Origin: Candidatus Anderseniibacteriota bacterium
GTDB lineage: Bacteria; Patescibacteriota; Andersenbacteria; UBA10190
Direction of reading: 5' to 3'
NCBI GenBank assembly: GCA_040876835.1
Contig: JBBDOX010000007.1
Span: forward strand, 7,916-71,915
Length of the DNA: 64,000 nt
The stretch's first letter is position 1; every line of letters begins with the position of its first letter. Under the pieces are notes generated by a model. The model had not been told where the DNA came from and did not search any database. It saw only the letters and a program-made list of their open reading frames with translations. Below are positions 34,596 through 46,431 of this stretch, one piece after another. The position numbers and the translations under genes are program-made.

Positions 34596-37424
34596 CTATT
34601 TAATTGTTACAGTGTGGCGCTCTGATTCAGTGAAGTTACCAGTTTTATCGTACGCCACCGCGTATACAGTGTAAGTGCCTAGTCCGGGAGAATCTTGCCA
34701 GACAGCTTCGTATCGGTCAGGAGCAGTTGGTGCTTGAGTGTTGGTGCGGGCAATACGCTTGGTTCCAGGTTGACCTTCTTTGATGTACAGCATATCTACG
34801 AAATCAACCCCACTGCTATCTTTGGCAGTTACTTTTACAGTGTAGGGGAAGTTGGTCTCGGCTAAAGTGAGGTTGTTTTGAGGAGTGTGAATGGTGATTG
34901 TCGGGCTGGAGTCGTCCGGGTTGATAATGAAGGTGCGATGAGCCTGGCCGATGAAGTTGTTTTCGGTAATTGCCATAACAATAAGTGTTTTGCGGCCCGA
35001 GAAGTTCTTGTCAAAAGTGATTGTCGCACTATGGGTGCCATCTGGCCCCTTGCGAGCAATTTCTTGTCCATCCAAAACGAAGCGCACTTCCCGTAGGCGG
35101 TGAGGGGAGTCAATTTCCACTGTAACTTGTGTAGGGCTATCGCGCAGAACGGTGGTATTTGGTTCGATAATTTTAACTTTTGGTAACTCTTCTTCGCTAC
35201 CTACGTTACAGCTAGGTTCTGGTAGTGACCCAAAGTAAAGCGGCTCTTCTGCAACGTCTTTGTTCTTTTCATTATGTTTATCACGCCACTGAGCAATACC
35301 GGCCTCCCAGTTGTTGAACTGAGGGTCAGCCTCGGCTCGTGCTGGGGGGTCCCCTAAGGGATTAGTGCGTCGTACGTAGAAGAGGATGCTGTGTAGCTCC
35401 TTCAAGGTGCGGGGCTGACCTTGGGCGACTGGGCACTCGTTGGTATAGAGCGTATTCGTCTCGCTTACCCACTTGCCCTTTACTTCTCTAATTTGCCCTC
35501 GAAGAATACCGTGTGCCGTATCAGGAAGAGGTGCGGGTTTTGTAAACTGCTCGATGGGGGTGCCATCAAGGGCTCCTTTCATGAATGTATTCCAGAGAAA
35601 AGCTGCAGTGTTGCTTCCAGCTGCTCCCTTACCCATAGGGGAGTTATCGTTATTGCCTACCCATACACCGGCTGCTAGGGAGGGGGTAAATCCAATTGTC
35701 CAACCATCACGAGAGTCCTGAGTGGTGCCCGTCTTGGCGCCTACGGGGCGACTCCCGAGCTGGAGGAAGCTGCGAGTACCAAAGACGGCAGCGCGGGCAT
35801 TGTTATCCGATAATACGTCAGTTGTTAGGCGGGCTACTTGTGGATCTAGGACTTGAGTTCCCTGGGGTTGCTCCGCTGTTGCGTCAAATAGCACCTCTTT
35901 TGCATCTTCGACTTTTAACACAGCGCGGGCGGGATAGCGAGTTCCCTCTGCTGCAAAGACTCCATACGCAGATGTAATATCAACCAGCCGCACCTCTCCA
36001 CCACCCAATACTAATGACAGACCATATCGGTCGGGGTCGCTTAATGATGTCATTCCCATGCGCTGGGCCAGGTCAGTAGCGGTCCGCACCCCTACTAAGT
36101 ACAGTGCTTTGACTGCAGGGATGTTATACGAGTTTGCGAGAGCACTCCGCATGGTAACGGGGCCATGCTCAGCTAGGTCGTAGTTCTTGGGGATATATCC
36201 TTGACCAAAATCTGTTTCAGCATCTACGAGAATTGTTTCTGGAGCAAATCCTTTTTCGAATGCAGCGGCATATATGAAAGGTTTAATAGAAGACCCAGGG
36301 GAGCGATGACGGATAGACACGTTCACATTCCCATCAATGTCTTCATTGAAATAATCAATTGATCCGACCATGGCTAAGATATTACCGGTAACGGGGTGAA
36401 TGGCGACAAGAGAACTGTTAGATGCTCCCTGACTGACCAGGCGCTCCTGAGCGTTCTTTAGGGTGTCCTCGGCGACTGATTGTAGACGGGCGTCCAGGGT
36501 AGTTATAACTCTCAGGCCTCCTTGTTCCACTACTCGCTCCCCGTACTCTTCTTCGAGGAGTTCTTTAACATAAAAAACAAAATGAGGAGCCTCAATGTTT
36601 TCATGAGGAGGAGAGAATGTCAGTGTTTCACTTTTGGCCGCCTCCGCTTCTTCCTTGCTGACCATGTTTAGATCAGCCATGCGATTTAAGATGTGTTCTT
36701 GGCGAAACTTTAGATCTTCAAAGTGAGACCCGTAAGGGGAGTAATAGCTAGGTGCTTGAGGAAGAGCCGCTAGGATTGTTGCTTGAGCCAAGGATACATT
36801 TTTAGCCGAGGTTCCAAAAAATATTTGAGCAGCAGCTTCCACTCCGTACGCTCTGCTGCCGTAAGGAATAGCATTTAAATACATCTCTAGAATCTCGTCT
36901 TTTCCAAAGCGCTGTTCTAGCTCCAATGCCAAGACTGCCTCTTTCGCCTTGCGTCGGATAGTGCGCTCGGGAGTGAGGATGGAGTTTTTGATCAGCTGTT
37001 GGGTAATAGTTGATCCGCCCTGGACCCTTCGTCCGCTCAGGGGCTTCAGTATTACACCACGCAAGATGCCACCAAAATCGAGTCCGTGATGGGCGTAGAA
37101 TTGATCATCCTCGGCAGCGAGAGTGGCCTGGGTGATAAGGGGGGAGATTTCTCCAATAGAGGTATACGTGCGACGCGCTTCCCCAATCTCATAAAGAAGA
37201 TGAGTGCCAGTAGAGTCGTAAATTTTAGTTGATTCACCTATGCCAGTTTCCTGAATTTGCTGGGGATCGGGCAGGTCTCGGCTCCACCACAAAACCGTAC
37301 CGGCCATCACTAGAAAACCAGCCCCTGCTACTGCCAGAAGGCGTGGAATTATACGGCGGTTTAGAGTAGTGGAGCGTAGCTGATGCAGCCACGAACTCTG
37401 CCGCTTATAACGACGAGTAGCCAT
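34596..37424 (-). CDS. Class A penicillin-binding protein (PBP1A-type transglycosylase/transpeptidase) with a C-terminal Ig-like extension
   Basis: The GT51 motifs are 'EDDQFYAHHGLD' and 'GGSTITQQLIKN'. The transpeptidase motifs are 'SPGSSIKPF' and 'KTGTTQDSRDGW'. About 250 extra C-terminal residues are present. Confidence 0.9.
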   Translation of the reverse strand: MATRRYKRQSSWLHQLRSTTLNRRIIPRLLAVAGAGFLVMAGTVLWWSRDLPDPQQIQETGIGESTKIYDSTGTHLLYEIGEARRTYTSIGEISPLITQATLAAEDDQFYAHHGLDFGGILRGVILKPLSGRRVQGGSTITQQLIKNSILTPERTIRRKAKEAVLALELEQRFGKDEILEMYLNAIPYGSRAYGVEAAAQIFFGTSAKNVSLAQATILAALPQAPSYYSPYGSHFEDLKFRQEHILNRMADLNMVSKEEAEAAKSETLTFSPPHENIEAPHFVFYVKELLEEEYGERVVEQGGLRVITTLDARLQSVAEDTLKNAQERLVSQGASNSSLVAIHPVTGNILAMVGSIDYFNEDIDGNVNVSIRHRSPGSSIKPFIYAAAFEKGFAPETILVDAETDFGQGYIPKNYDLAEHGPVTMRSALANSYNIPAVKALYLVGVRTATDLAQRMGMTSLSDPDRYGLSLVLGGGEVRLVDITSAYGVFAAEGTRYPARAVLKVEDAKEVLFDATAEQPQGTQVLDPQVARLTTDVLSDNNARAAVFGTRSFLQLGSRPVGAKTGTTQDSRDGWTIGFTPSLAAGVWVGNNDNSPMGKGAAGSNTAAFLWNTFMKGALDGTPIEQFTKPAPLPDTAHGILRGQIREVKGKWVSETNTLYTNECPVAQGQPRTLKELHSILFYVRRTNPLGDPPARAEADPQFNNWEAGIAQWRDKHNEKNKDVAEEPLYFGSLPEPSCNVGSEEELPKVKIIEPNTTVLRDSPTQVTVEIDSPHRLREVRFVLDGQEIARKGPDGTHSATITFDKNFSGRKTLIVMAITENNFIGQAHRTFIINPDDSSPTITIHTPQNNLTLAETNFPYTVKVTAKDSSGVDFVDMLYIKEGQPGTKRIARTNTQAPTAPDRYEAVWQDSPGLGTYTVYAVAYDKTGNFTESERHTVTIK

Positions 37425-37486: not shown

Positions 37487-38803
37487 CTATTTAATCGTCT
37501 TGTCACGCGGGGTTTTGGTAGGGTCTACAAGAAAGCCTTTGAGATCCCGACGACCCACAATCATGTCGTAGTTCATATGGGTGCGGTCTGCTAAAAATGC
37601 TTCAGTTTTTACCGGGCGATCGCGAATAACCATGTTAAGGTTAATGATTGGGCGGGTTTGTTCGCCCAAGGCTCCGCGGACGTCTTTGTGCTCCACGACA
37701 GGTTTGTCGAGCTTAAGTTTTTTAGCCAGGTTTTCATCAATAGTTGTTCGGTATGCGCCGGTATCGATCTTGGCCAGAATGGGATGCTGCGCTTGTTCAT
37801 TATCAAGAATAATGACTTCTTCTTCTATACCTAAAATAGTTCTGCCAGTCATGTCTTCTACTTCCTGTTCAAGCTCATTTCCAAAAAGATTCTTTGCTAA
37901 TCTAATTTTCTTCTCCAAACTGCTCATTTTCAAGTCTTCCACTCGGCGGAGACGGGATCGTAGTGGAGCTAGGTTGGCGTATTGAATATCCAGCCCCGGA
38001 CGAGCATTGATTTCTAGAACTAGTGGACCATCATCACGATCGATAGCAATATCTACCCCCACATAGTTCAGGTTAGAGGCGGCGGCGGTGCGTACGGCAA
38101 GGAGGAGAAGGTCGTTCCAGTGCGGAACGGTAATACCCGACAGGCTTAATCGCTTATGGGGCAGGGTATCTAGTAGGTGTCCATGCTGTACGGCTGTTGT
38201 TGTGATGCCTTGTGACAGATCAATGCCCACTCCAATGCCCCCAGCATGCAAGTTCGCTTTTCCGCCTGATTCCTCGGTGGGTAAACGCAACATAGCCATA
38301 ACCGGTACCTGATTGTACAGCAGAACGCGAACGTCGGGAACTCCCTTAACACTGTATTGTTTTAAGACAGCATCTACTTTAACGCGCTGTTCGAAAAAGG
38401 CGACATCTGGGATGTTCCCATTAGAAAAGTTTCCGTCGAGGATATCTATAATATGATTCCGGAGCTCGGGAATAAATACTTCTGTTTTGTCTGCTTTAAC
38501 CCAGTTTCCTTTTTTGTTTCGTCCAAAGATAACTATAATTCCACCGCCTCCAGAAGAGGAGTTTGGTTTTAGCACAAAGGAACCAGGAAGTTTGGTCCAA
38601 CGAAATTTCTTGAGTTCCTCACGAGTACGAATGACACCAAATAGCCGGGGAGTGGCCAGGCCGGCTTTTTGCAAAACTTTCTTGGTTTTTAATTTATTGT
38701 TAGCAAGGCGAATTGCCTCGGAAGAGTTTACCTTCGCAATATACTCGAGCATCCTTGCATTCATCCCAAGCACGTTTTTCCATTGCTTGCTTCGCAGAGC
38801 CAT
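37487..38803 (-). CDS. ATP-grasp (RimK-like peptide ligase) fused to a C-terminal retropepsin-like aspartic protease domain
   Basis: The N-terminal half has an ATP-grasp layout ('KLKTKKVLQKAGLATPRLFGV...'). The C-terminal approximately 120 aa carry 'ILAKIDTGAYRTTID', a DTGA aspartyl protease motif of the Zn_protease/PF05618 type. Confidence 0.65.
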   Translation of the reverse strand: MALRSKQWKNVLGMNARMLEYIAKVNSSEAIRLANNKLKTKKVLQKAGLATPRLFGVIRTREELKKFRWTKLPGSFVLKPNSSSGGGGIIVIFGRNKKGNWVKADKTEVFIPELRNHIIDILDGNFSNGNIPDVAFFEQRVKVDAVLKQYSVKGVPDVRVLLYNQVPVMAMLRLPTEESGGKANLHAGGIGVGIDLSQGITTTAVQHGHLLDTLPHKRLSLSGITVPHWNDLLLLAVRTAAASNLNYVGVDIAIDRDDGPLVLEINARPGLDIQYANLAPLRSRLRRVEDLKMSSLEKKIRLAKNLFGNELEQEVEDMTGRTILGIEEEVIILDNEQAQHPILAKIDTGAYRTTIDENLAKKLKLDKPVVEHKDVRGALGEQTRPIINLNMVIRDRPVKTEAFLADRTHMNYDMIVGRRDLKGFLVDPTKTPRDKTIK

Positions 38804-38818
38804 AAAAGAGAGTCGAAT

Positions 38819-40348
38819 TTACTGAACGTATCGCAGTAAGCGACGGAACCGAAAGTATTCTGTTAGGCGCAACCCACTCCATCGACCCAGAGCGATATTA
38901 ACAGGAATAGCCAGCAGGACAATCTCGGGGTAGGAGACAATAATCGAACGAACAATTTCCCAGCTTACAATGAAGTAAGAAGCAATAGACAGCCCCAGTG
39001 TCCAGGCGGTAATGGTGGCAGCACGTCGCGCACCGGATTTAAACTGCACGGCAATGAATTCTTCGGCCAAGAGCACAAGAATGAGAATAGGGAAAATGGA
39101 GAATGACAAGATGGCCGTGTTGTCGAGTGCTACTCCTAGGCCAAAGAGCATAAGAATCGCTACGCTGGCCATGGTGAGCACCAGAGCCATGCGAGGAAGG
39201 TATAAAAGATGAAGTTTGCGGAGCACTAGACGTGTTAAAGTTCCGGCTAGCAAGATAACAGAGAACATTACTAATCCATACTTAAGGCCTAGTACTAAAA
39301 AGCTAAGCGTCGTCATCGCGGGAGTGATAATACCAAAGGCCTTAATACCGATTACCTGTCGGGCAAAAGAAAGAATTGTTGCGATTACAGGCAAAATCAA
39401 GATGAGCGTGATGTTATTAACAGGCACTCCACGGTTAATAAGAAAGTTGATGCCAAATGATAGGAAGTTGGTAATGCCAATGTCAGTGATCGCGCGAGCA
39501 CTAAATGTGCCGAATAAACGGTGGGACAGCGGAGAGTCAAAGATGGCTCGCTCGGCTTCTTCGGAGCTGATGGGTTCTAGTAGTAGATCGATTGCTTGAG
39601 GGCGGGTGAGTAGTACGTAACTAGGATTCAGTTGGGTGAATGTGGATTGAGCAGAAGGGGCTAAAACACCAAAAGGGGTTTCAGATAGGATGACAACGCC
39701 TTTGCTCTCCATGTTGAGATCAGCAAAAGATAGCTCGCCCGCTTGGCGTATGTGCTGGGCAAATTTCGATAAAATAGTGGGCCCGACACTACCGGATGTC
39801 CATGTAGCAATAATTTCTGCTTTAGCTACAACATCACGGGCATCAACTAACTGGTTGGCAAGCTCTTCTTCCACCACAACCTCGGGGCCTCCCTTAGAGC
39901 GCAGTACTAATAATAGGAGATCGTTTCTAGCTGCCTGTTGACGCTTAAGCTCAACTTGATCCTCTGGAGCACTACCATCGGTCAGTAAAATCATAGTGTG
40001 TTCAAACACAGTAATTTCAGCAGTGTCTTCAGCTATACTTTGTTCAGTCCGAATTGTTACCTGGATAGTATAGTTACCAGGGTTTGCATAGGCATGAGTA
40101 ACTTTCTCTCCAGTACTGCGAATTCCATCCCCAAAACTCCAGACCACTTCACGAATAGCGTCTCCTTCGGGGATAAATGATCCGGTAATGTCAAAAGAGA
40201 CTGTTCGGCCAATAAGTACTTGATTGGTAGTAATTGTAGCGTTGGCGGTGGGACGGGGGCTCTCTTCGGGGGGCTCCTCCTGAGCTAGAGTAAGCCAAGG
40301 GGCGACTAATAAGACTAGAAGAAAAAGAAGTGATTTTATGGATATCAT
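38819..40348 (-). CDS. Secreted PKD-domain protein fused to a C-terminal polytopic membrane domain (7TM inactive-transglutaminase-like partner of the ATP-grasp/protease gene)
   Basis: A signal peptide is followed by the PKD motif 'VVWSFGDGIRSTGEKVTHAYANPGNYTIQVTI' and then about 7 hydrophobic helices. It is adjacent to and co-oriented with the ATP-grasp gene. The ATG at 40348 is preferred over the GTG at 40372. Confidence 0.5.
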   Translation of the reverse strand: MISIKSLLFLLVLLVAPWLTLAQEEPPEESPRPTANATITTNQVLIGRTVSFDITGSFIPEGDAIREVVWSFGDGIRSTGEKVTHAYANPGNYTIQVTIRTEQSIAEDTAEITVFEHTMILLTDGSAPEDQVELKRQQAARNDLLLLVLRSKGGPEVVVEEELANQLVDARDVVAKAEIIATWTSGSVGPTILSKFAQHIRQAGELSFADLNMESKGVVILSETPFGVLAPSAQSTFTQLNPSYVLLTRPQAIDLLLEPISSEEAERAIFDSPLSHRLFGTFSARAITDIGITNFLSFGINFLINRGVPVNNITLILILPVIATILSFARQVIGIKAFGIITPAMTTLSFLVLGLKYGLVMFSVILLAGTLTRLVLRKLHLLYLPRMALVLTMASVAILMLFGLGVALDNTAILSFSIFPILILVLLAEEFIAVQFKSGARRAATITAWTLGLSIASYFIVSWEIVRSIIVSYPEIVLLAIPVNIALGRWSGLRLTEYFRFRRLLRYVQ

Positions 40349-40359
40349 AGAGGGTGAGG

Positions 40360-40815
40360 TTAGACTACACACAAGGCGGCCGCAAGTGCATCTGCAGCAT
40401 CGTCTGGTTGGGGGATATCTGCAAGGTGAAGCTGTTGAGTGACAGCGGCCTGAATCTGCTCTTTACGAGCGGCCCCGTACCCCGTGATTCTCGATTTAAT
40501 TTGCAGTGGAGTCAGAGATTCTACAGTTATGTGATGCTTACGTAGAATATACACCAACACCCCTCGTGCTTGTGCTGTGATCATAGCGGTTTTGCTGTTA
40601 TTCCCAAAGTATACTCGTTCTACTACGGCTATATCAGGGTGAGTATCGTTAATAAGGTGTTCTAAGTCTTCTCCTAACATAAGTAGTCGGTCTTCGTCGC
40701 TTTGGTGTTTAGGGGTAGTAAGACAGCCACAGCGGACAAACAAATGCTGGCTGCTGGTGTTGATAACACCAAAGCCAGTGCGCGCAATACCTGGGTCTAA
40801 TCCTAAAACGATCAT
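40360..40815 (-). CDS. ruvC: Holliday junction resolvase RuvC
   Basis: 'MIVLGLDPGIARTGFGVI' and 'AVVERVYFGNNSKTAMITAQARGV...DAADALAAAL' are present. Confidence 0.9.
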   Translation of the reverse strand: MIVLGLDPGIARTGFGVINTSSQHLFVRCGCLTTPKHQSDEDRLLMLGEDLEHLINDTHPDIAVVERVYFGNNSKTAMITAQARGVLVYILRKHHITVESLTPLQIKSRITGYGAARKEQIQAAVTQQLHLADIPQPDDAADALAAALCVV

Positions 40816-40860: not shown

Positions 40861-41373
40861 TCAGGCAGCGTCGGTGTGAATTTCTTCTACGTCCTCTAGC
40901 TCCTCTAAGGCAGCAAGAAAAGCACCCAACGCGGCAGTGTCGGTAGGTGAAAGTGAAACAGGAAATTGAGGGGAAAGATCGTGAGTGAATTTCCAGCGAA
41001 CGCTGTTGGGCCCTCCAAGTTCGAAACCATGCATTTTAAATATGGTCCGAATTTGTCCTACGGCTCGGTTGGGGTTATCGGTTCTGGTGTTAATTAGAAT
41101 ACCTACCCCACCCGGCCCAAAACCCTCGTATACAATCTCAGCAAGATTGCTATTGTCTCTTTCTCGTAAAAGTCGATCAATATTACTTTGAGGCATGTTT
41201 GCTTTCTTGGCCCGTTCAATAGCATCGCGTAAAGCAGCATTCTTGGTAGGATCGCGCTCCTGTCTGGCGGCAACTTTAACATCACGAGCCAGGCGGCCAA
41301 ATGCCTTACTTTTCTTTTGGTCATTTACGGCTTTTTGGTGGCGAATTTTATGCCACTTTGAATGTCCAGACAT
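40861..41373 (-). CDS. YebC/PmpR-family DNA-binding protein (short, 170 aa)
   Basis: 'MSGHSKWHKIRHQKAVNDQKKSKAFGRLARDVKVAARQ' is present. It is shorter than the usual 240 aa or so. Confidence 0.75.
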   Translation of the reverse strand: MSGHSKWHKIRHQKAVNDQKKSKAFGRLARDVKVAARQERDPTKNAALRDAIERAKKANMPQSNIDRLLRERDNSNLAEIVYEGFGPGGVGILINTRTDNPNRAVGQIRTIFKMHGFELGGPNSVRWKFTHDLSPQFPVSLSPTDTAALGAFLAALEELEDVEEIHTDAA

Positions 41374-41383
41374 GAGTGTTGGT

Positions 41384-42064
41384 TTATAGGCGAAGAATAT
41401 CGAGTTTACGAGCGACTATTTGAAGGTTAGACATAAGCGGTTCGTGACCAAGGGCGACAATGCCATACAGTGGTCCTTGAATAGTAGTATTACTGATACT
41501 GCAATTTGTCGTTTGGCTATAAACACCCACATTCCCATTAGAAATAATACTATCGTGGACTTCAGCCGCACTCCCTGACAAGCACGAGATCGCTGGGTCG
41601 CCATGCTTAAGCAGGGTATATTCGATTGTAGCCTTTCCTCCTGAAGCAATTTCAATACCATTCCAGGTTTGGTTGTCAGGATGGGATTCATTGGACACAA
41701 ATCGTATTCTTCGGGTAGGGGTTCCAATGGCCACCAGCGTACCTTCTACGACGAGCTTACTATGTTCATGAAAAGCGATAGTGGTTCCGGCGGGAATGGT
41801 TAGGTTTGAATTAGGGGGAATGATGACAGTGCCGGCTATGGCAATGACCTTTTGAGAAGAATCTATGACGGTGTTATTTGTAATACGGGAAGGTAGATAT
41901 TGGGCAGTGGGAAAGAGGGGTGTGTGACGATTTGGCTCAGTAACAAAGCTTGGATGAGCTAAACGCTCAGTCCAGGTAGTTGCCTCTATTTTTTCGAATA
42001 GGAGAATAAACGGCACTATTAAAAGCGCAATAGTAGCAATAATTGTAGGAGTCTGAAATTGCAT
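41384..42064 (-). CDS. Membrane-anchored protein with right-handed beta-helix-like repeats (hypothetical)
   Basis: An N-terminal TM is followed by repeats rich in N/T/I/G ('IIPPNSNLTIPAGTTIAFHEHSKLVVEGT', 'ISNGNVGVYSQTTNCSISNTTIQG'). Confidence 0.4.
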   Translation of the reverse strand: MQFQTPTIIATIALLIVPFILLFEKIEATTWTERLAHPSFVTEPNRHTPLFPTAQYLPSRITNNTVIDSSQKVIAIAGTVIIPPNSNLTIPAGTTIAFHEHSKLVVEGTLVAIGTPTRRIRFVSNESHPDNQTWNGIEIASGGKATIEYTLLKHGDPAISCLSGSAAEVHDSIISNGNVGVYSQTTNCSISNTTIQGPLYGIVALGHEPLMSNLQIVARKLDILRL

Positions 42065-43463: not shown

Positions 43464-43988
43464 ATGAAAGGAAAATACCTGACAGCAGCCAACGGTGTGA
43501 CGATTTTCCGTTTAGTGCTGTTTCTGCTTTTCTTGATCTATCTTTACCTTCAACAGCCTATTGTGGCTGGTGCTCTTCTCCTCGCTGCCTGGGGACTGGA
43601 TGCCATTGATGGGTTTGTAGCTCGAATATTTCATCAACAGAGCGATATAGGATCATGGCTTGATAAAACTATTGATCGGGCGGTTATTGGATTGGGTGTG
43701 CTAGCCTTAATTGCTGGTGGATACATACCACCCAAGGCACTTCTTCTATTAACAAAAGATATTGGCTTATTTCCTTTATTTACGATTCAGCCGCCAGGTG
43801 CTTGGTGGGTCCAGGGGTTGGGGTGGACTGGCAAAGGAATGACCTTTCTACAAGGAATAGGAATACTATGGCTGCTTCTGGATCTGCGGTATGCAAACTA
43901 TTTATTGGGAATCGTGGCAGTAGCAGGGGGTGCAGTTGCTGTTTGGCACTTAAATTGCGTGGTTCGCAAGTATGAACAAAGGAACTAA
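43464..43988 (+). CDS. CDP-alcohol phosphatidyltransferase family protein
   Basis: The motif 'DAIDGFVARIFHQQSDIGSWLDKTIDR' fits D-x2-DG-x2-AR...G-x3-D-x3-D. A polytopic protein. Confidence 0.6.
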   Translation: MKGKYLTAANGVTIFRLVLFLLFLIYLYLQQPIVAGALLLAAWGLDAIDGFVARIFHQQSDIGSWLDKTIDRAVIGLGVLALIAGGYIPPKALLLLTKDIGLFPLFTIQPPGAWWVQGLGWTGKGMTFLQGIGILWLLLDLRYANYLLGIVAVAGGAVAVWHLNCVVRKYEQRN

Positions 43989-46431
43989 ACACCTTATCGC
44001 CCTCTGTGGAAAACATGTGGATGGATTGTGGAAATCTGGAGATAACGGTTATGGACTAAGTATTTTAGGGTTTCTGGGAGCACTCCTGGTGGTCTTGTTC
44101 ACACCTAGTGTGTTGACGGCCGAAGGTGAGGGTGGGGTGATTATATCTGAAATAATGTGGGCCGGAGGGGAATATGTTGAGATATATAATAATAGTCAGG
44201 TCGCGGTGAGCCTGAAGGGTTGGAAAATTACTCGCCAGAAAAACGAGAGTGAGGAGGAAAAAACGGTTGCTCAGCTTACTTCTGACCGTATAGTGCAGCC
44301 TGGTGCCTTCTTTCTGTTGCAGGAAGTAGGGGCAACAACAGTTTCTCCAGACGAGGAACGTTCTTCTATAACACTTGTGGATACGGGAGAAGTGCTGCGT
44401 TTATATACCAAAGATGGAGTACTAGTTGATATAGCGGGGCGGTTTGAAAGTGAAGGAAGTTGGTTTGCGGGAGTGAATACTAGTGGCGGAGTATCGATGG
44501 AAAGAGTCTTATATGACGCCGATGGTGAAATAGCTGAAAGTTGGATTGATTCCCTGGGAGTTGGTGGAGGAAGGCAAGGCACGCCTGCTGAAGCCTCAAT
44601 TCAAATTACTCCCTCTCCTCCCTCCATATCCCCGTCTTCTGCGCCCTCGAGTGCGCCGGTAGCATCGCCTAGCGTTATTCCTACCCCTTATTTATCTACA
44701 GTCATTGTGAACGAGTTTCTTCCAGACCCGACGGGGGATGATACTTTGGGTGAGTTTATTGAGCTGAAAAACACTGGAACGGCTGCTGCTAACCTTGATG
44801 GCTGGCAACTGGACGATGAAGAGGGCGGCAGCCTGCCATACGGCATCCCTACAGGAACATTGATTCCAGCTGGGGAGACTATGCTGTTCATGCGCCCAGA
44901 TACAAAAATTTCCTTGAACAATGATGGTGATCAAGTGAGGTTTTTGTCTCCAGATGGAGTACTTCAGTCGAGCGTTGCTTACGATGACGCAACGTCAGGG
45001 TATGCGTATGCATACGACACCCAAACAAAAACCTACCGACAAACCACAACCCCTACTCCAGGATCGGAAAACGTCTTTACTATTCCCCCCGTACCCACTC
45101 CAAAAATTAGTAGCACTGAGAACGCTACTGGCACAGAAGAAGAGGAGGAAGTCGGTCAGTTGTCTGATGCAATTGTGATTAGCGAGGTGTTGCCCAACCC
45201 TATTGGGTCTGACACGGAAGGAGAGTTTATAGAACTCTATAACTCTGGTTCAAGTGAAATAAATCTTGTCGGATGGAGACTTGATGATGTACTGGATGGT
45301 GGAAGTATCCCATATCGTATTCCGGTTGGTACAAGGATTGGAGGCGGTAAGTTTTTAGTGTTTGAGCGAGCACAGACAAAACTAGCGCTTAACAATAGCA
45401 ATGAAACTGTCCATCTTCTTGACCCTGCTGGGACAGTAAAATCTCTAGTCTCGTTTACGGATTCGATCGCCGAAGGTGTGTCGCTAGCTCGCGCGATGGA
45501 TGGTTCTTATGTGCTGACAACTACCGTTACAAAAGGAGCTGATAACCTCATCACTGCACCAGGGAGTCTACTATTTGGAGCTGTGGGAGGGGTAAGCAGA
45601 AGGGTGCTTAGTATAGAGCAATCTAGGCAGATGCCCCAAGGTTCAATAGTGAATTTGGAAGGAGTTGTGAGTGCTGCGCCAGGAATCTTAGGAAAGGGAA
45701 TTGTCTATCTGTCCGGGTCGGGAATACAGCTGTATCTAGGAAAAGGGGAGTGGCCCCTTGTAGAGCTAGGAGAGCGGATTCGTGTTACTGGCAAGCTCTC
45801 GTCAATTGCAGGCGAAGCGCGTATTCTTGTTTCTGCTGTAAGCGACGTAGAGCGAATAAGTACTGATGAACCACCTGAACCTCATATTGTAAAAACCAGT
45901 GACATACGCGAGGAACTCGAAGGGTTTTTAGTTGAAGTTCAAGGATTGATAACGCGTTCTAGCGGATCAACTTTTTATATTGACGATGGTAGTGGCGAGG
46001 CACGGATTACTGTTAAAGATTCAACAGGAATAAAAAAGCCTCGTACTTCCAAAGGGATGGCAGTGCGGATAACCGGAATAGTTTCACAAACCGCTGGTGG
46101 GTACCGGATCCTCCCTCGTTTCCAGGGCGACTTGGTTATAGGAGGCGGAGTTGTATCTTCTACAAAAGTAACAACCCGATCTTCTTCTGCGTCTGCTCCT
46201 GCGGATTTATCAGCCGAATCTACTGCTGATCCTATCAATGTATTTGAAGCGGGGGATGTTTCGTATGCAGTGGAATGGGCACAAGGGGGCGGAGCAGCGA
46301 CAAAGTCAAAGCAGAACATATTTGTTGTTTTTGGAGTTGGCGCCGCTTTATTTCAGGCTGCAGGTGCTGCCGCCGCAGGAGAGCCATTGCTAAGGAGCCG
46401 CAGGCTTGCTACAAAAGAACAATGGCAGTAG
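43972..46431 (+). CDS. Lamin-tail-domain (LTD) repeat surface protein
   Basis: An N-terminal TM is followed by three LTD-like modules ('VIISEIMWAGGEYVEIYN...LKGWKI', 'VIVNEFLPDPTGDDTLGEFIELKNTGTAAANLDGWQLDD', 'IVISEVLPNPIGSDTEGEFIELYNSGSSEINLVGWRLDD'). The C-terminus has a hydrophobic tail. Confidence 0.6.
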   Translation: MNKGTKHLIALCGKHVDGLWKSGDNGYGLSILGFLGALLVVLFTPSVLTAEGEGGVIISEIMWAGGEYVEIYNNSQVAVSLKGWKITRQKNESEEEKTVAQLTSDRIVQPGAFFLLQEVGATTVSPDEERSSITLVDTGEVLRLYTKDGVLVDIAGRFESEGSWFAGVNTSGGVSMERVLYDADGEIAESWIDSLGVGGGRQGTPAEASIQITPSPPSISPSSAPSSAPVASPSVIPTPYLSTVIVNEFLPDPTGDDTLGEFIELKNTGTAAANLDGWQLDDEEGGSLPYGIPTGTLIPAGETMLFMRPDTKISLNNDGDQVRFLSPDGVLQSSVAYDDATSGYAYAYDTQTKTYRQTTTPTPGSENVFTIPPVPTPKISSTENATGTEEEEEVGQLSDAIVISEVLPNPIGSDTEGEFIELYNSGSSEINLVGWRLDDVLDGGSIPYRIPVGTRIGGGKFLVFERAQTKLALNNSNETVHLLDPAGTVKSLVSFTDSIAEGVSLARAMDGSYVLTTTVTKGADNLITAPGSLLFGAVGGVSRRVLSIEQSRQMPQGSIVNLEGVVSAAPGILGKGIVYLSGSGIQLYLGKGEWPLVELGERIRVTGKLSSIAGEARILVSAVSDVERISTDEPPEPHIVKTSDIREELEGFLVEVQGLITRSSGSTFYIDDGSGEARITVKDSTGIKKPRTSKGMAVRITGIVSQTAGGYRILPRFQGDLVIGGGVVSSTKVTTRSSSASAPADLSAESTADPINVFEAGDVSYAVEWAQGGGAATKSKQNIFVVFGVGAALFQAAGAAAAGEPLLRSRRLATKEQWQ

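Follow-up and report, generated by a model that had tools for sequence, protein, structure and literature searches.

The stretch analysed here, a window of 64,000 nucleotides (nt) from an ultra-small bacterium of Candidatus Anderseniibacteriota (assembly GCA_040876835.1, contig JBBDOX010000007.1, positions 7,916 to 71,915), carries on its minus strand two adjacent genes for an amino-acid ligase fused to a protease and for a membrane protein. The fusion gene (37487-38803, minus strand) encodes 438 amino acids and was identified by Pfam and NCBIfam matches and by a 100% identical database protein. The gene of the membrane partner (38819-40348, minus strand) encodes 509 amino acids, was identified in the same manner with Pfam, and is separated from the fusion gene by 15 nt. 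A sequence-only reading of the window had proposed an ATP-grasp ligase and a retropepsin-like protease in one polypeptide, accompanied by a secreted-type protein with a PKD domain and about seven transmembrane (TM) helices. Both open reading frames (ORFs) are real and co-oriented, and Pfam searches with RimK, Zn_protease and 7TM_transglut all gave matches, which bears out the predicted triad of ATP-grasp, retropepsin-like and 7TM_transglut domains. Judged by sequence comparison, the pair appears to be a variant of the RloABC system of Pseudomonas that is related to RimB/RimK, and not a strict member of either RloABC or RimBK.

The ligase-protease fusion and its membrane partner

The ATP-grasp ligase domain comprises residues 1-310 of the fusion protein (37874-38803, minus strand). 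Pfam ATPgrasp_ST (PF14397) matched residues 19-289 with an E-value of 1.4e-64, and RimK (PF08443) matched the same protein with an E-value of 3e-12. The best NCBIfam family was TIGR02291, with 267 bits (E-value 1.8e-79) over profile positions 9-313 of 317 and a curated cut-off of 314.2. This is the 'alpha-L-glutamate ligase-like' family, represented by RloC of Pseudomonas. True TIGR02291 members scored 394-440 bits and shared 38-40% identity with the ligase domain. The RimK family model TIGR00768 gave 62.3 bits, below its cut-off of 143.4. Residues K79, E138, D251, E264 and N266 were invariant among the relatives (alignment A3); they are presumably the ATP-grasp signature positions, with roles assigned from general knowledge of ATP-grasp enzymes.

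The ligase domain is followed by a short acidic linker, LEQEVEDMTGR (residues 311-321; 37841-37873, minus strand), which was delimited by sequence and alignment A3. The 100% identical database protein (P0001) is named from Candidatus Andersenbacteria. The best 120 cluster representatives listed (62-100% identity) were full-length, and PF05618, the family of the protease half, was also recorded in nearly all of them. A scan of one genome per species gave at least 600 matching stretches, of which at least 593 were found to encode a relative; all neighbourhood counts given below cover the best 80 of these loci (L001-L080). The possibility that the fusion arose through an assembly or frameshift artefact was ruled out by its conservation in at least 120 clusters and in 80 genomes. 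The presence of both PF14397 and PF05618 on the 438 amino acids confirms the fusion of ligase and protease.

The retropepsin-like aspartic peptidase domain occupies residues 322-432 (37508-37840, minus strand). PF05618 (Zn_protease, retropepsin-like clan AA) matched residues 354-430 with an E-value of 3.6e-10 and 40.3 bits, where the gathering score is 27, and weak matches to Asp_protease_2 and gag-asp_proteas were obtained on the same protein. The sequence KIDTGA lies at residues 345-350; further key residues are R384, R407 and the G417-R-R-D motif. Of the 80 orthologous loci, 75 keep K.DTGA and all have D[TS]GA. The DTGA motif noted in the sequence-only reading is therefore genuine and not a chance match.

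In a comparison with the PDB, the domain matched the retropepsin domains of Ddi1 and of RloA (crystal structures 9G58 and 9G59). K345, D347, R384 and R407 of the fusion align with K46, D48, R114 and R137 of RloA, and the spacing of 23 residues between R384 and R407 equals that between R114 and R137. Relative to RloA, the flap region lacks about 29 residues. The fusion protein has neither a signal peptide nor cysteines, like cytoplasmic RimB and unlike periplasmic RloA. The models for RloA1, RloA2 and RloA3 gave 22-39 bits on the fusion against cut-offs of 210-280, and the RimB-type model NF052261 gave 19.3 bits against a cut-off of 200.

The membrane partner is 509 amino acids long when read from the ATG at 40348. 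The 100% identical database protein (P0121) also has 509 amino acids and covers the ATG-start query fully. The length of 517 amino acids assumed earlier results from a GTG start at 40372, which overlaps ruvC, and was abandoned. Among the best 120 clusters listed with P0121 the Pfam architecture was the same, so that the fusion and its partner each keep their architecture in at least 120 clusters; for both proteins every cluster with a specific organism name belongs to Andersenbacteria. The AlphaFold2 (AF2) model of the partner reached a predicted local distance difference test score (pLDDT) of 82.7.

A signal peptide was predicted at residues 1-22 (...LTLAQ/EE; 40283-40348, minus strand) from a hydropathy peak at residues 1-19 and a helix at residues 2-15 of the model, followed by a disordered segment. 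Cleavage would be expected after residue 22. The extracytoplasmic PKD domain extends over residues ~32-116 (40001-40255, minus strand); PKD_4 matched residues 40-122 with an E-value of 7e-16, within the Pfam threshold, and the fold is an immunoglobulin (Ig)-like beta-sandwich. The C-terminal part, residues 291-509 (38822-39478, minus strand), is a 7TM_transglut bundle according to PF14402, hhalign and hydropathy. PF14402 matched residues 322-512 with an E-value of 7e-28 and 98.1 bits against a gathering threshold of 25. The hydropathy profile comprises the signal peptide, seven TM helices and a basic cytoplasmic tail, in agreement with the architecture that had been read from the ORF. By the positive-inside rule the topology is N-out/C-in, which places the PKD domain and the middle domain outside and the tail inside.

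The motif G-L-R-L-T-E-Y-x-R-F at residues 492-501, on the cytoplasmic C-terminal side, is conserved throughout the family, and R-L-T-E-x-x-R-F is common to the architectures P0353, P0375 and P0390 from outside the candidate phyla radiation (CPR). The other conserved residues of the bundle (R330, R373, Y383-L-P-R386, E429 and Q435) are also located on the cytoplasmic side. The C-terminal tails of the 7TM proteins are basic and variable, with K as the commonest last residue. The 7TM C-terminus was considered as an acceptor of glutamylation and rejected, since such tails are unlikely acceptors.

The middle domain, residues 117-290 (39479-40000, minus strand), lies between the PKD domain and the bundle on the extracytoplasmic side. 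The AF2 model of this domain is a three-layer beta-alpha-beta sandwich with a pLDDT of 91 and a predicted template modelling score of 0.87, and by this model the domain is a flavodoxin-like alpha/beta sandwich. The invariant residues D124, T184-x-G186, T224 and Q234 are found at the C-terminal ends of strands. These ends are the usual place of ligand binding in flavodoxin-like folds. An inactive, papain-like transglutaminase had been expected at this position in the sequence-only reading. No match to PF14400 or Transglut_core was obtained in Pfam at an E-value of up to 1. Of the RloB model, nothing but the 7TM part was matched, at profile positions 313-507, and the score of 72 bits is far from the cut-off of 900. 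An hhalign comparison with P0390, which combines a transglutaminase core, 7TM and ATP-grasp, likewise aligned the 7TM part only (99.4%, E-value 1.5e-21). The transglutaminase assignment was given up on the basis of these results and the modelled fold. A profile of the middle domain alone (A2), searched against a set of 5.8 billion proteins, retrieved three fragments and missed known homologues, and was thus uninformative.

Distribution, gene neighbourhood and architecture variants

The best loci carry mostly CPR titles (Andersen-, Moran-, Kerfeld-, Kuenen-, Falkow-, Portnoy-, Woese- and Paceibacteria), and many further ones are titled 'Saccharibacteria', which also belong to the CPR. Titles such as 'Bdellovibrionales', 'Micavibrio', 'Gammaproteobacteria' and 'Pacearchaeota' occur at L025, L026, L033, L034, L038, L040, L053, L055 and others. 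These records carry the typical CPR order yebC-ruvC-7TM-fusion-PBP1A and are suspected to be mislabelled CPR genome bins. Among the related loci found, nearly all of them CPR-titled, fusion of ligase and protease is the rule, and this Andersenbacteria genome is no special case.

The common gene order across the best loci is yebC-ruvC-7TM-fusion. A 7TM gene adjoins the fusion gene immediately on the 5' side in 77/80 loci and is fused to the ligase in one further locus; the remaining two are cut off upstream. Upstream, ruvC is present in 68 and yebC in 60 of the 80 loci, and a gene for penicillin-binding protein 1A (PBP1A) follows downstream on the same strand, at a distance of 0-4.5 kb, in 52. 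The partner is a bare 7TM protein of ~220 amino acids in most lineages. The form with PKD domain, middle domain and 7TM bundle was found in 6-7 of the 9 loci closest to the window (L001-L005 and L009 among them), the others being cut off upstream, and also in single loci of Kerfeld-, Kuenen- and Falkowbacteria. In L038 the middle domain is present and a PKD domain was not detected.

In the window, six tightly spaced and co-oriented minus-strand genes extend from 42064 down to 34596. The first (41384-42064) encodes a protein of 226 amino acids without a Pfam family (ORF list and Pfam scan). It is followed by yebC (40861-41373) and ruvC (40360-40815), both recognised by Pfam matches and as conserved 5' neighbours, by the membrane partner and fusion genes, and by a class A PBP1A of 942 amino acids (34596-37424) with Transgly, Transpeptidase and Big_7 matches. 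The gap from the ruvC stop to the ATG of the partner is 11 nt, and that between the fusion gene and PBP1A is 62 nt. The latter contains a promoter-like site, TTGACA-17-CATGAT (37484-37456, minus strand), and PBP1A may therefore also be transcribed alone.

Several peculiarities of the neighbouring genes were recorded. PBP1A is long and has a C-terminal extension of ~250 amino acids, including the Big_7 Ig-like domain. YebC has 170 amino acids compared to ~240 in typical cases and looks C-terminally shortened; the TACO1/YebC 'second and third domain' model matches it at positions 2-55 of 160 only. The 226-amino-acid protein has a hydrophobic N-terminal segment, and its homologues are encoded 5' of yebC in L001, L003 and L009 and directly 5' of ruvC in L002. 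On the plus strand, an 819-amino-acid protein with three Lamin-tail (LTD) domains and an EEEEE run is encoded at 43972-46431. A related protein with LTD and PKD domains is encoded 5' of yebC in L011, and PKD-matching ORFs occur at that position in several other CPR loci. The EEEEE run was the only poly-acidic run found to be encoded nearby. It was considered as a genome-encoded substrate and dismissed as too short for cleavage of the RloA type.

Elsewhere, the gap between the fusion gene and PBP1A holds further genes: additional ATP-grasp genes in 46 loci, a second ATP-grasp type in 17, MATCAP in 10 and YdjC in 6, besides a Mur-ligase-like gene. Many of the loci outside Andersenbacteria (within L010-L080) carry one or two extra ATP-grasp genes, some of them with MATCAP/DUF1704, YdjC or Mur-ligase-like genes. 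These genes look like parts of a larger peptide-building cluster. A scan of the window found no extra ATP-grasp, MATCAP, YdjC or Mur-ligase-like genes.

Architecture classes were taken from the 150 best representatives at 50% identity (P0241-P0390). Ligase plus protease was found in 53 representatives, ligase plus protease plus MATCAP in about 41, ligase alone in 44, 7TM plus ligase in 5, and protease plus 7TM plus ligase in one. The triple fusions with MATCAP (PF08014), a metallocarboxypeptidase, have ~800 amino acids and share the N-terminal two-domain core with the window protein at 40-44% identity. Among the 96 representatives that have the retropepsin domain, DTG is lost in 37 of the 41 fused to MATCAP and in 13 of the other 55 (Fisher p = 3e-11); the window protein keeps DTG and lacks MATCAP. 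The loss of DTG thus tracks the fused MATCAP, and this pattern suggests that the ligase requires some peptidase activity beside it, which in the clade of the window would be provided by the retropepsin domain. Once another peptidase is present, the retropepsin domain apparently persists as a pseudo-protease.

In the natural 7TM-ligase fusions, the ligase follows directly after the GLRLTEYxRF helix. This position, together with the conserved residues on the cytoplasmic side, supports the idea that the ligase docks there on the 7TM protein. In P0375 (657 amino acids) the order is retropepsin, 7TM and ATP-grasp. Given an N-out/C-in topology, such a protein would expose its protease on the outside and keep its ligase in the cytoplasm, and would thus mirror the Pseudomonas topology in one polypeptide.

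Comparison with known systems

A neighbourhood of ATP-grasp, pepsin-like peptidase and 7TM-inactive-transglutaminase genes is said to have been predicted by Iyer, Abhiman, Burroughs and Aravind in 2009 (Mol Biosyst 5:1636), and the Pfam families PF14397, PF14402 and PF05618 reportedly stem from that work. The window shares with this prediction the gene triad and the coupling of peptide ligation to a membrane protein. It differs by the absence of a transglutaminase module and by the fusion of ligase and peptidase. Searches of the full-text literature under the Pfam/TIGRFAM identifiers, or for RimK together with Patescibacteria, returned nothing relevant. The sequence-only reading had regarded such systems as computationally predicted only, with substrate and function unknown. 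This view is outdated by work on RloABC (Lormand et al., mBio 2025, PMC12239564) and on RimK/RimB and RimBK (Little et al., JBC 2025, PMC11957791).

RloABC of Pseudomonas aeruginosa has been studied genetically and structurally and consists of the secreted retropepsin RloA, the inactive transglutaminase-7TM protein RloB and the ATP-grasp protein RloC (PMC12239564). RloA is periplasmic, has a signal peptide and a conserved disulfide, and cleaves runs of at least 8 Glu; in the published model K46, D48, R114 and R137 bind poly-Glu, and the exchanges R114A and R137A abolish function (PMC12239564). A triple rloA protease mutant loses its defects when rloB or rloC is also deleted (PMC12239564), so that ligase and 7TM protein belong to one pathway with the protease. 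In Pseudomonas, the rlo genes were linked to biofilm formation, to the shape of the cells and to their tolerance of osmotic stress and beta-lactams, and RloB was reported to be 96% proteobacterial (PMC12239564).

The window resembles RloABC in the combination of an ATP-grasp ligase, a PF05618 DTGA peptidase with the poly-Glu-binding Lys and Arg residues, and a PF14402 7TM protein, encoded by adjacent and co-oriented genes. However, ligase and protease form one polypeptide in the window, whereas RloA is separate and secreted. The window protease, being part of the ligase polypeptide, is placed in the cytoplasm, and it lacks a signal peptide as well as disulfide cysteines. The 7TM protein of the window carries a PKD and a flavodoxin-like domain instead of the inactive transglutaminase domain, the host is a member of the CPR and not a proteobacterium, and all three window domains score below the NCBIfam equivalog cut-offs.

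RimK and RimB make and cleave poly-alpha-glutamate; RimB trims poly-Glu tails on RpsF, stimulates the poly-alpha-Glu synthesis of RimK, and needs at least 5 Glu (PMC11957791). In the RimB-RimK hybrid from Desulfotalea the protease is N-terminal and proteolytically active, and such RimBK proteins occur mainly in Flavobacteriales and Rhodobacterales (PMC11957791). Common to RimBK and the window are a cytoplasmic ATP-grasp glutamate ligase, to judge by the family assignment of the window enzyme, and a retropepsin-like endopeptidase; RimBK shows that a natural active fusion exists. The order of the domains is reversed, with the ligase N-terminal in the window. The window ligase does not belong to the RimK family, and RimBK has no 7TM partner. 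The assignment of the pair to neither system follows from the reversed order, the cytoplasmic protease, the missing transglutaminase, the new ectodomain, and the different lineage and context.

Proposed function and its alternatives

The pair is proposed to be the Candidatus Andersenbacteria form of a Rlo/Rim module of amino-acid ligase plus retropepsin. In this proposal a membrane-docked ligase builds acidic chains, a retropepsin dimer trims them, and the 7TM protein serves as the docking site and either exports the product or links the enzyme to the envelope. We give it a probability of about 0.5. The 438-amino-acid protein would be cytoplasmic and bifunctional. Its ATP-grasp domain would ligate amino acids with ATP, most likely L-glutamate, to give short acidic chains similar to poly-alpha-glutamate, either free or on the carboxylate of an acceptor. 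Two chains would have to associate through their retropepsin-like domains to complete an active site with two aspartates, and the dimer would cut the acidic chains, thereby limiting their length and driving their turnover. The enzyme may dock at the arginine-rich cytoplasmic face and the GLRLTEYxRF helix of the 7TM partner, which in turn may pass the product across the membrane or couple the enzyme to the envelope. The partner of Andersenbacteria would have gained its extracellular PKD and flavodoxin-like domains as a probable surface- or ligand-binding accessory.

Several observations weigh against this proposal. The substrate specificity is extrapolated, since the ligase scores below the TIGR02291 cut-off (267 vs 314) and far below that of RimK (62 vs 143). 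The shorter flap of the protease could change its specificity. The Pseudomonas protease is periplasmic and not cytoplasmic, and the two systems may thus route their product differently. The Desulfotalea RimBK gave no glutamylation of RpsF (PMC11957791). For the 7TM bundle, no structural neighbour from the PDB was among the 60 best matches listed.

The pair could instead modify envelope or peptidoglycan peptides, with a membrane-docked ligase adding amino acids to a lipid-linked or wall peptide, the protease editing the product, and both working with PBP1A; targets might be the stem peptide or a wall polymer like mycobacterial poly-L-glutamate/glutamine. The position of PBP1A on the 3' side (52/80 loci, and 62 nt away in the window), the extra ATP-grasp, Mur-ligase-like, MATCAP and YdjC genes in the gap of other CPR lineages and the extracellular location of the PKD and alpha/beta domains speak for such a role, as do the cell-shape, beta-lactam and hypo-osmotic phenotypes of rlo mutants in Pseudomonas (PMC12239564). 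However, the synteny with ruvC and yebC is equally conserved, and the gene order may thus reflect inheritance and not function. Between the fusion gene and PBP1A lies a promoter-like site, none of the extra ligase genes is present in the window, and the protease retains its poly-Glu-binding residues. An envelope role of this kind is considered doubtful. Transmembrane signalling, in which the ectodomain senses a cue and the 7TM bundle switches the cytoplasmic ligase and protease without any export, is unlikely. The ectodomain fold is of a ligand-binding type that resembles type I periplasmic binding proteins (PBP-I) and receiver domains, its invariant residues lie at the strand ends, and the most conserved parts of the bundle face the cytoplasm, but most CPR partners are bare 7TM proteins, and sensing by an ectodomain cannot be the core function.

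A role in ribosome modification similar to that of RimK/RimB, with the fusion both adding glutamate to and removing it from a cytoplasmic protein, S6 (RpsF) or a different one, while the 7TM partner is only a tether or regulator, would agree with the cytoplasmic location of both activities, the existence of RimBK hybrids and the housekeeping-gene neighbourhood. It is nevertheless rated as quite improbable: the RimK and RimB models score far below their cut-offs (62 vs 143 and 19 vs 200 bits), the ligase clusters with RloC-type enzymes that are linked or fused to 7TM proteins, and the 7TM partnership is essentially obligate (78/80 loci). A search of the window for rpsF gave a weak negative. It is very unlikely that the retropepsin cuts the acidic linker of its own chain, as retroviral proteases do, or that it only binds substrate. 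The linker, situated just N-terminal to the protease domain, is acidic, and roughly one half of the family retains the domain after the loss of DTG, so that a non-catalytic role does exist elsewhere in the family. Against this, the linker contains no poly-Glu run of the length required by RloA (at least 8 Glu) or RimB (at least 5), and within the clade of the window both DTGA and the Arg residues are strictly conserved.

A wider and rather speculative generalisation, which we regard as improbable at present, would make the 7TM protein and the ligase-retropepsin fusion an ancient and near-universal housekeeping module of the CPR, co-transcribed with ruvC and placed with PBP1A as the main peptidoglycan synthase, that produces an acidic peptide at the membrane and meters it for envelope or osmotic homeostasis. 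RloABC would then be derived from it, and the PKD and flavodoxin-like ectodomain would be an undescribed surface receptor. If this is true, the module would serve cells that lack most regulatory systems, and the ectodomain might recognise either the product or another cell, be it a host or a partner.

The CPR version can be regarded as a natural minimal form of the system, composed of a 7TM protein, bare in most lineages, and one polypeptide with two enzymes. It shows that the core system can do without the transglutaminase ectodomain and that an extracytoplasmic location is not required of the protease; the ligase would be placed directly behind the conserved helix on the cytoplasmic side of the 7TM protein. 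Fewer mechanisms come into question as a result, and reconstitution could make use of a simpler system of two proteins. A family whose 7TM component RloB was reported as 96% proteobacterial is thereby extended into Patescibacteria, where it is found in a strongly conserved neighbourhood of housekeeping and cell-wall genes.

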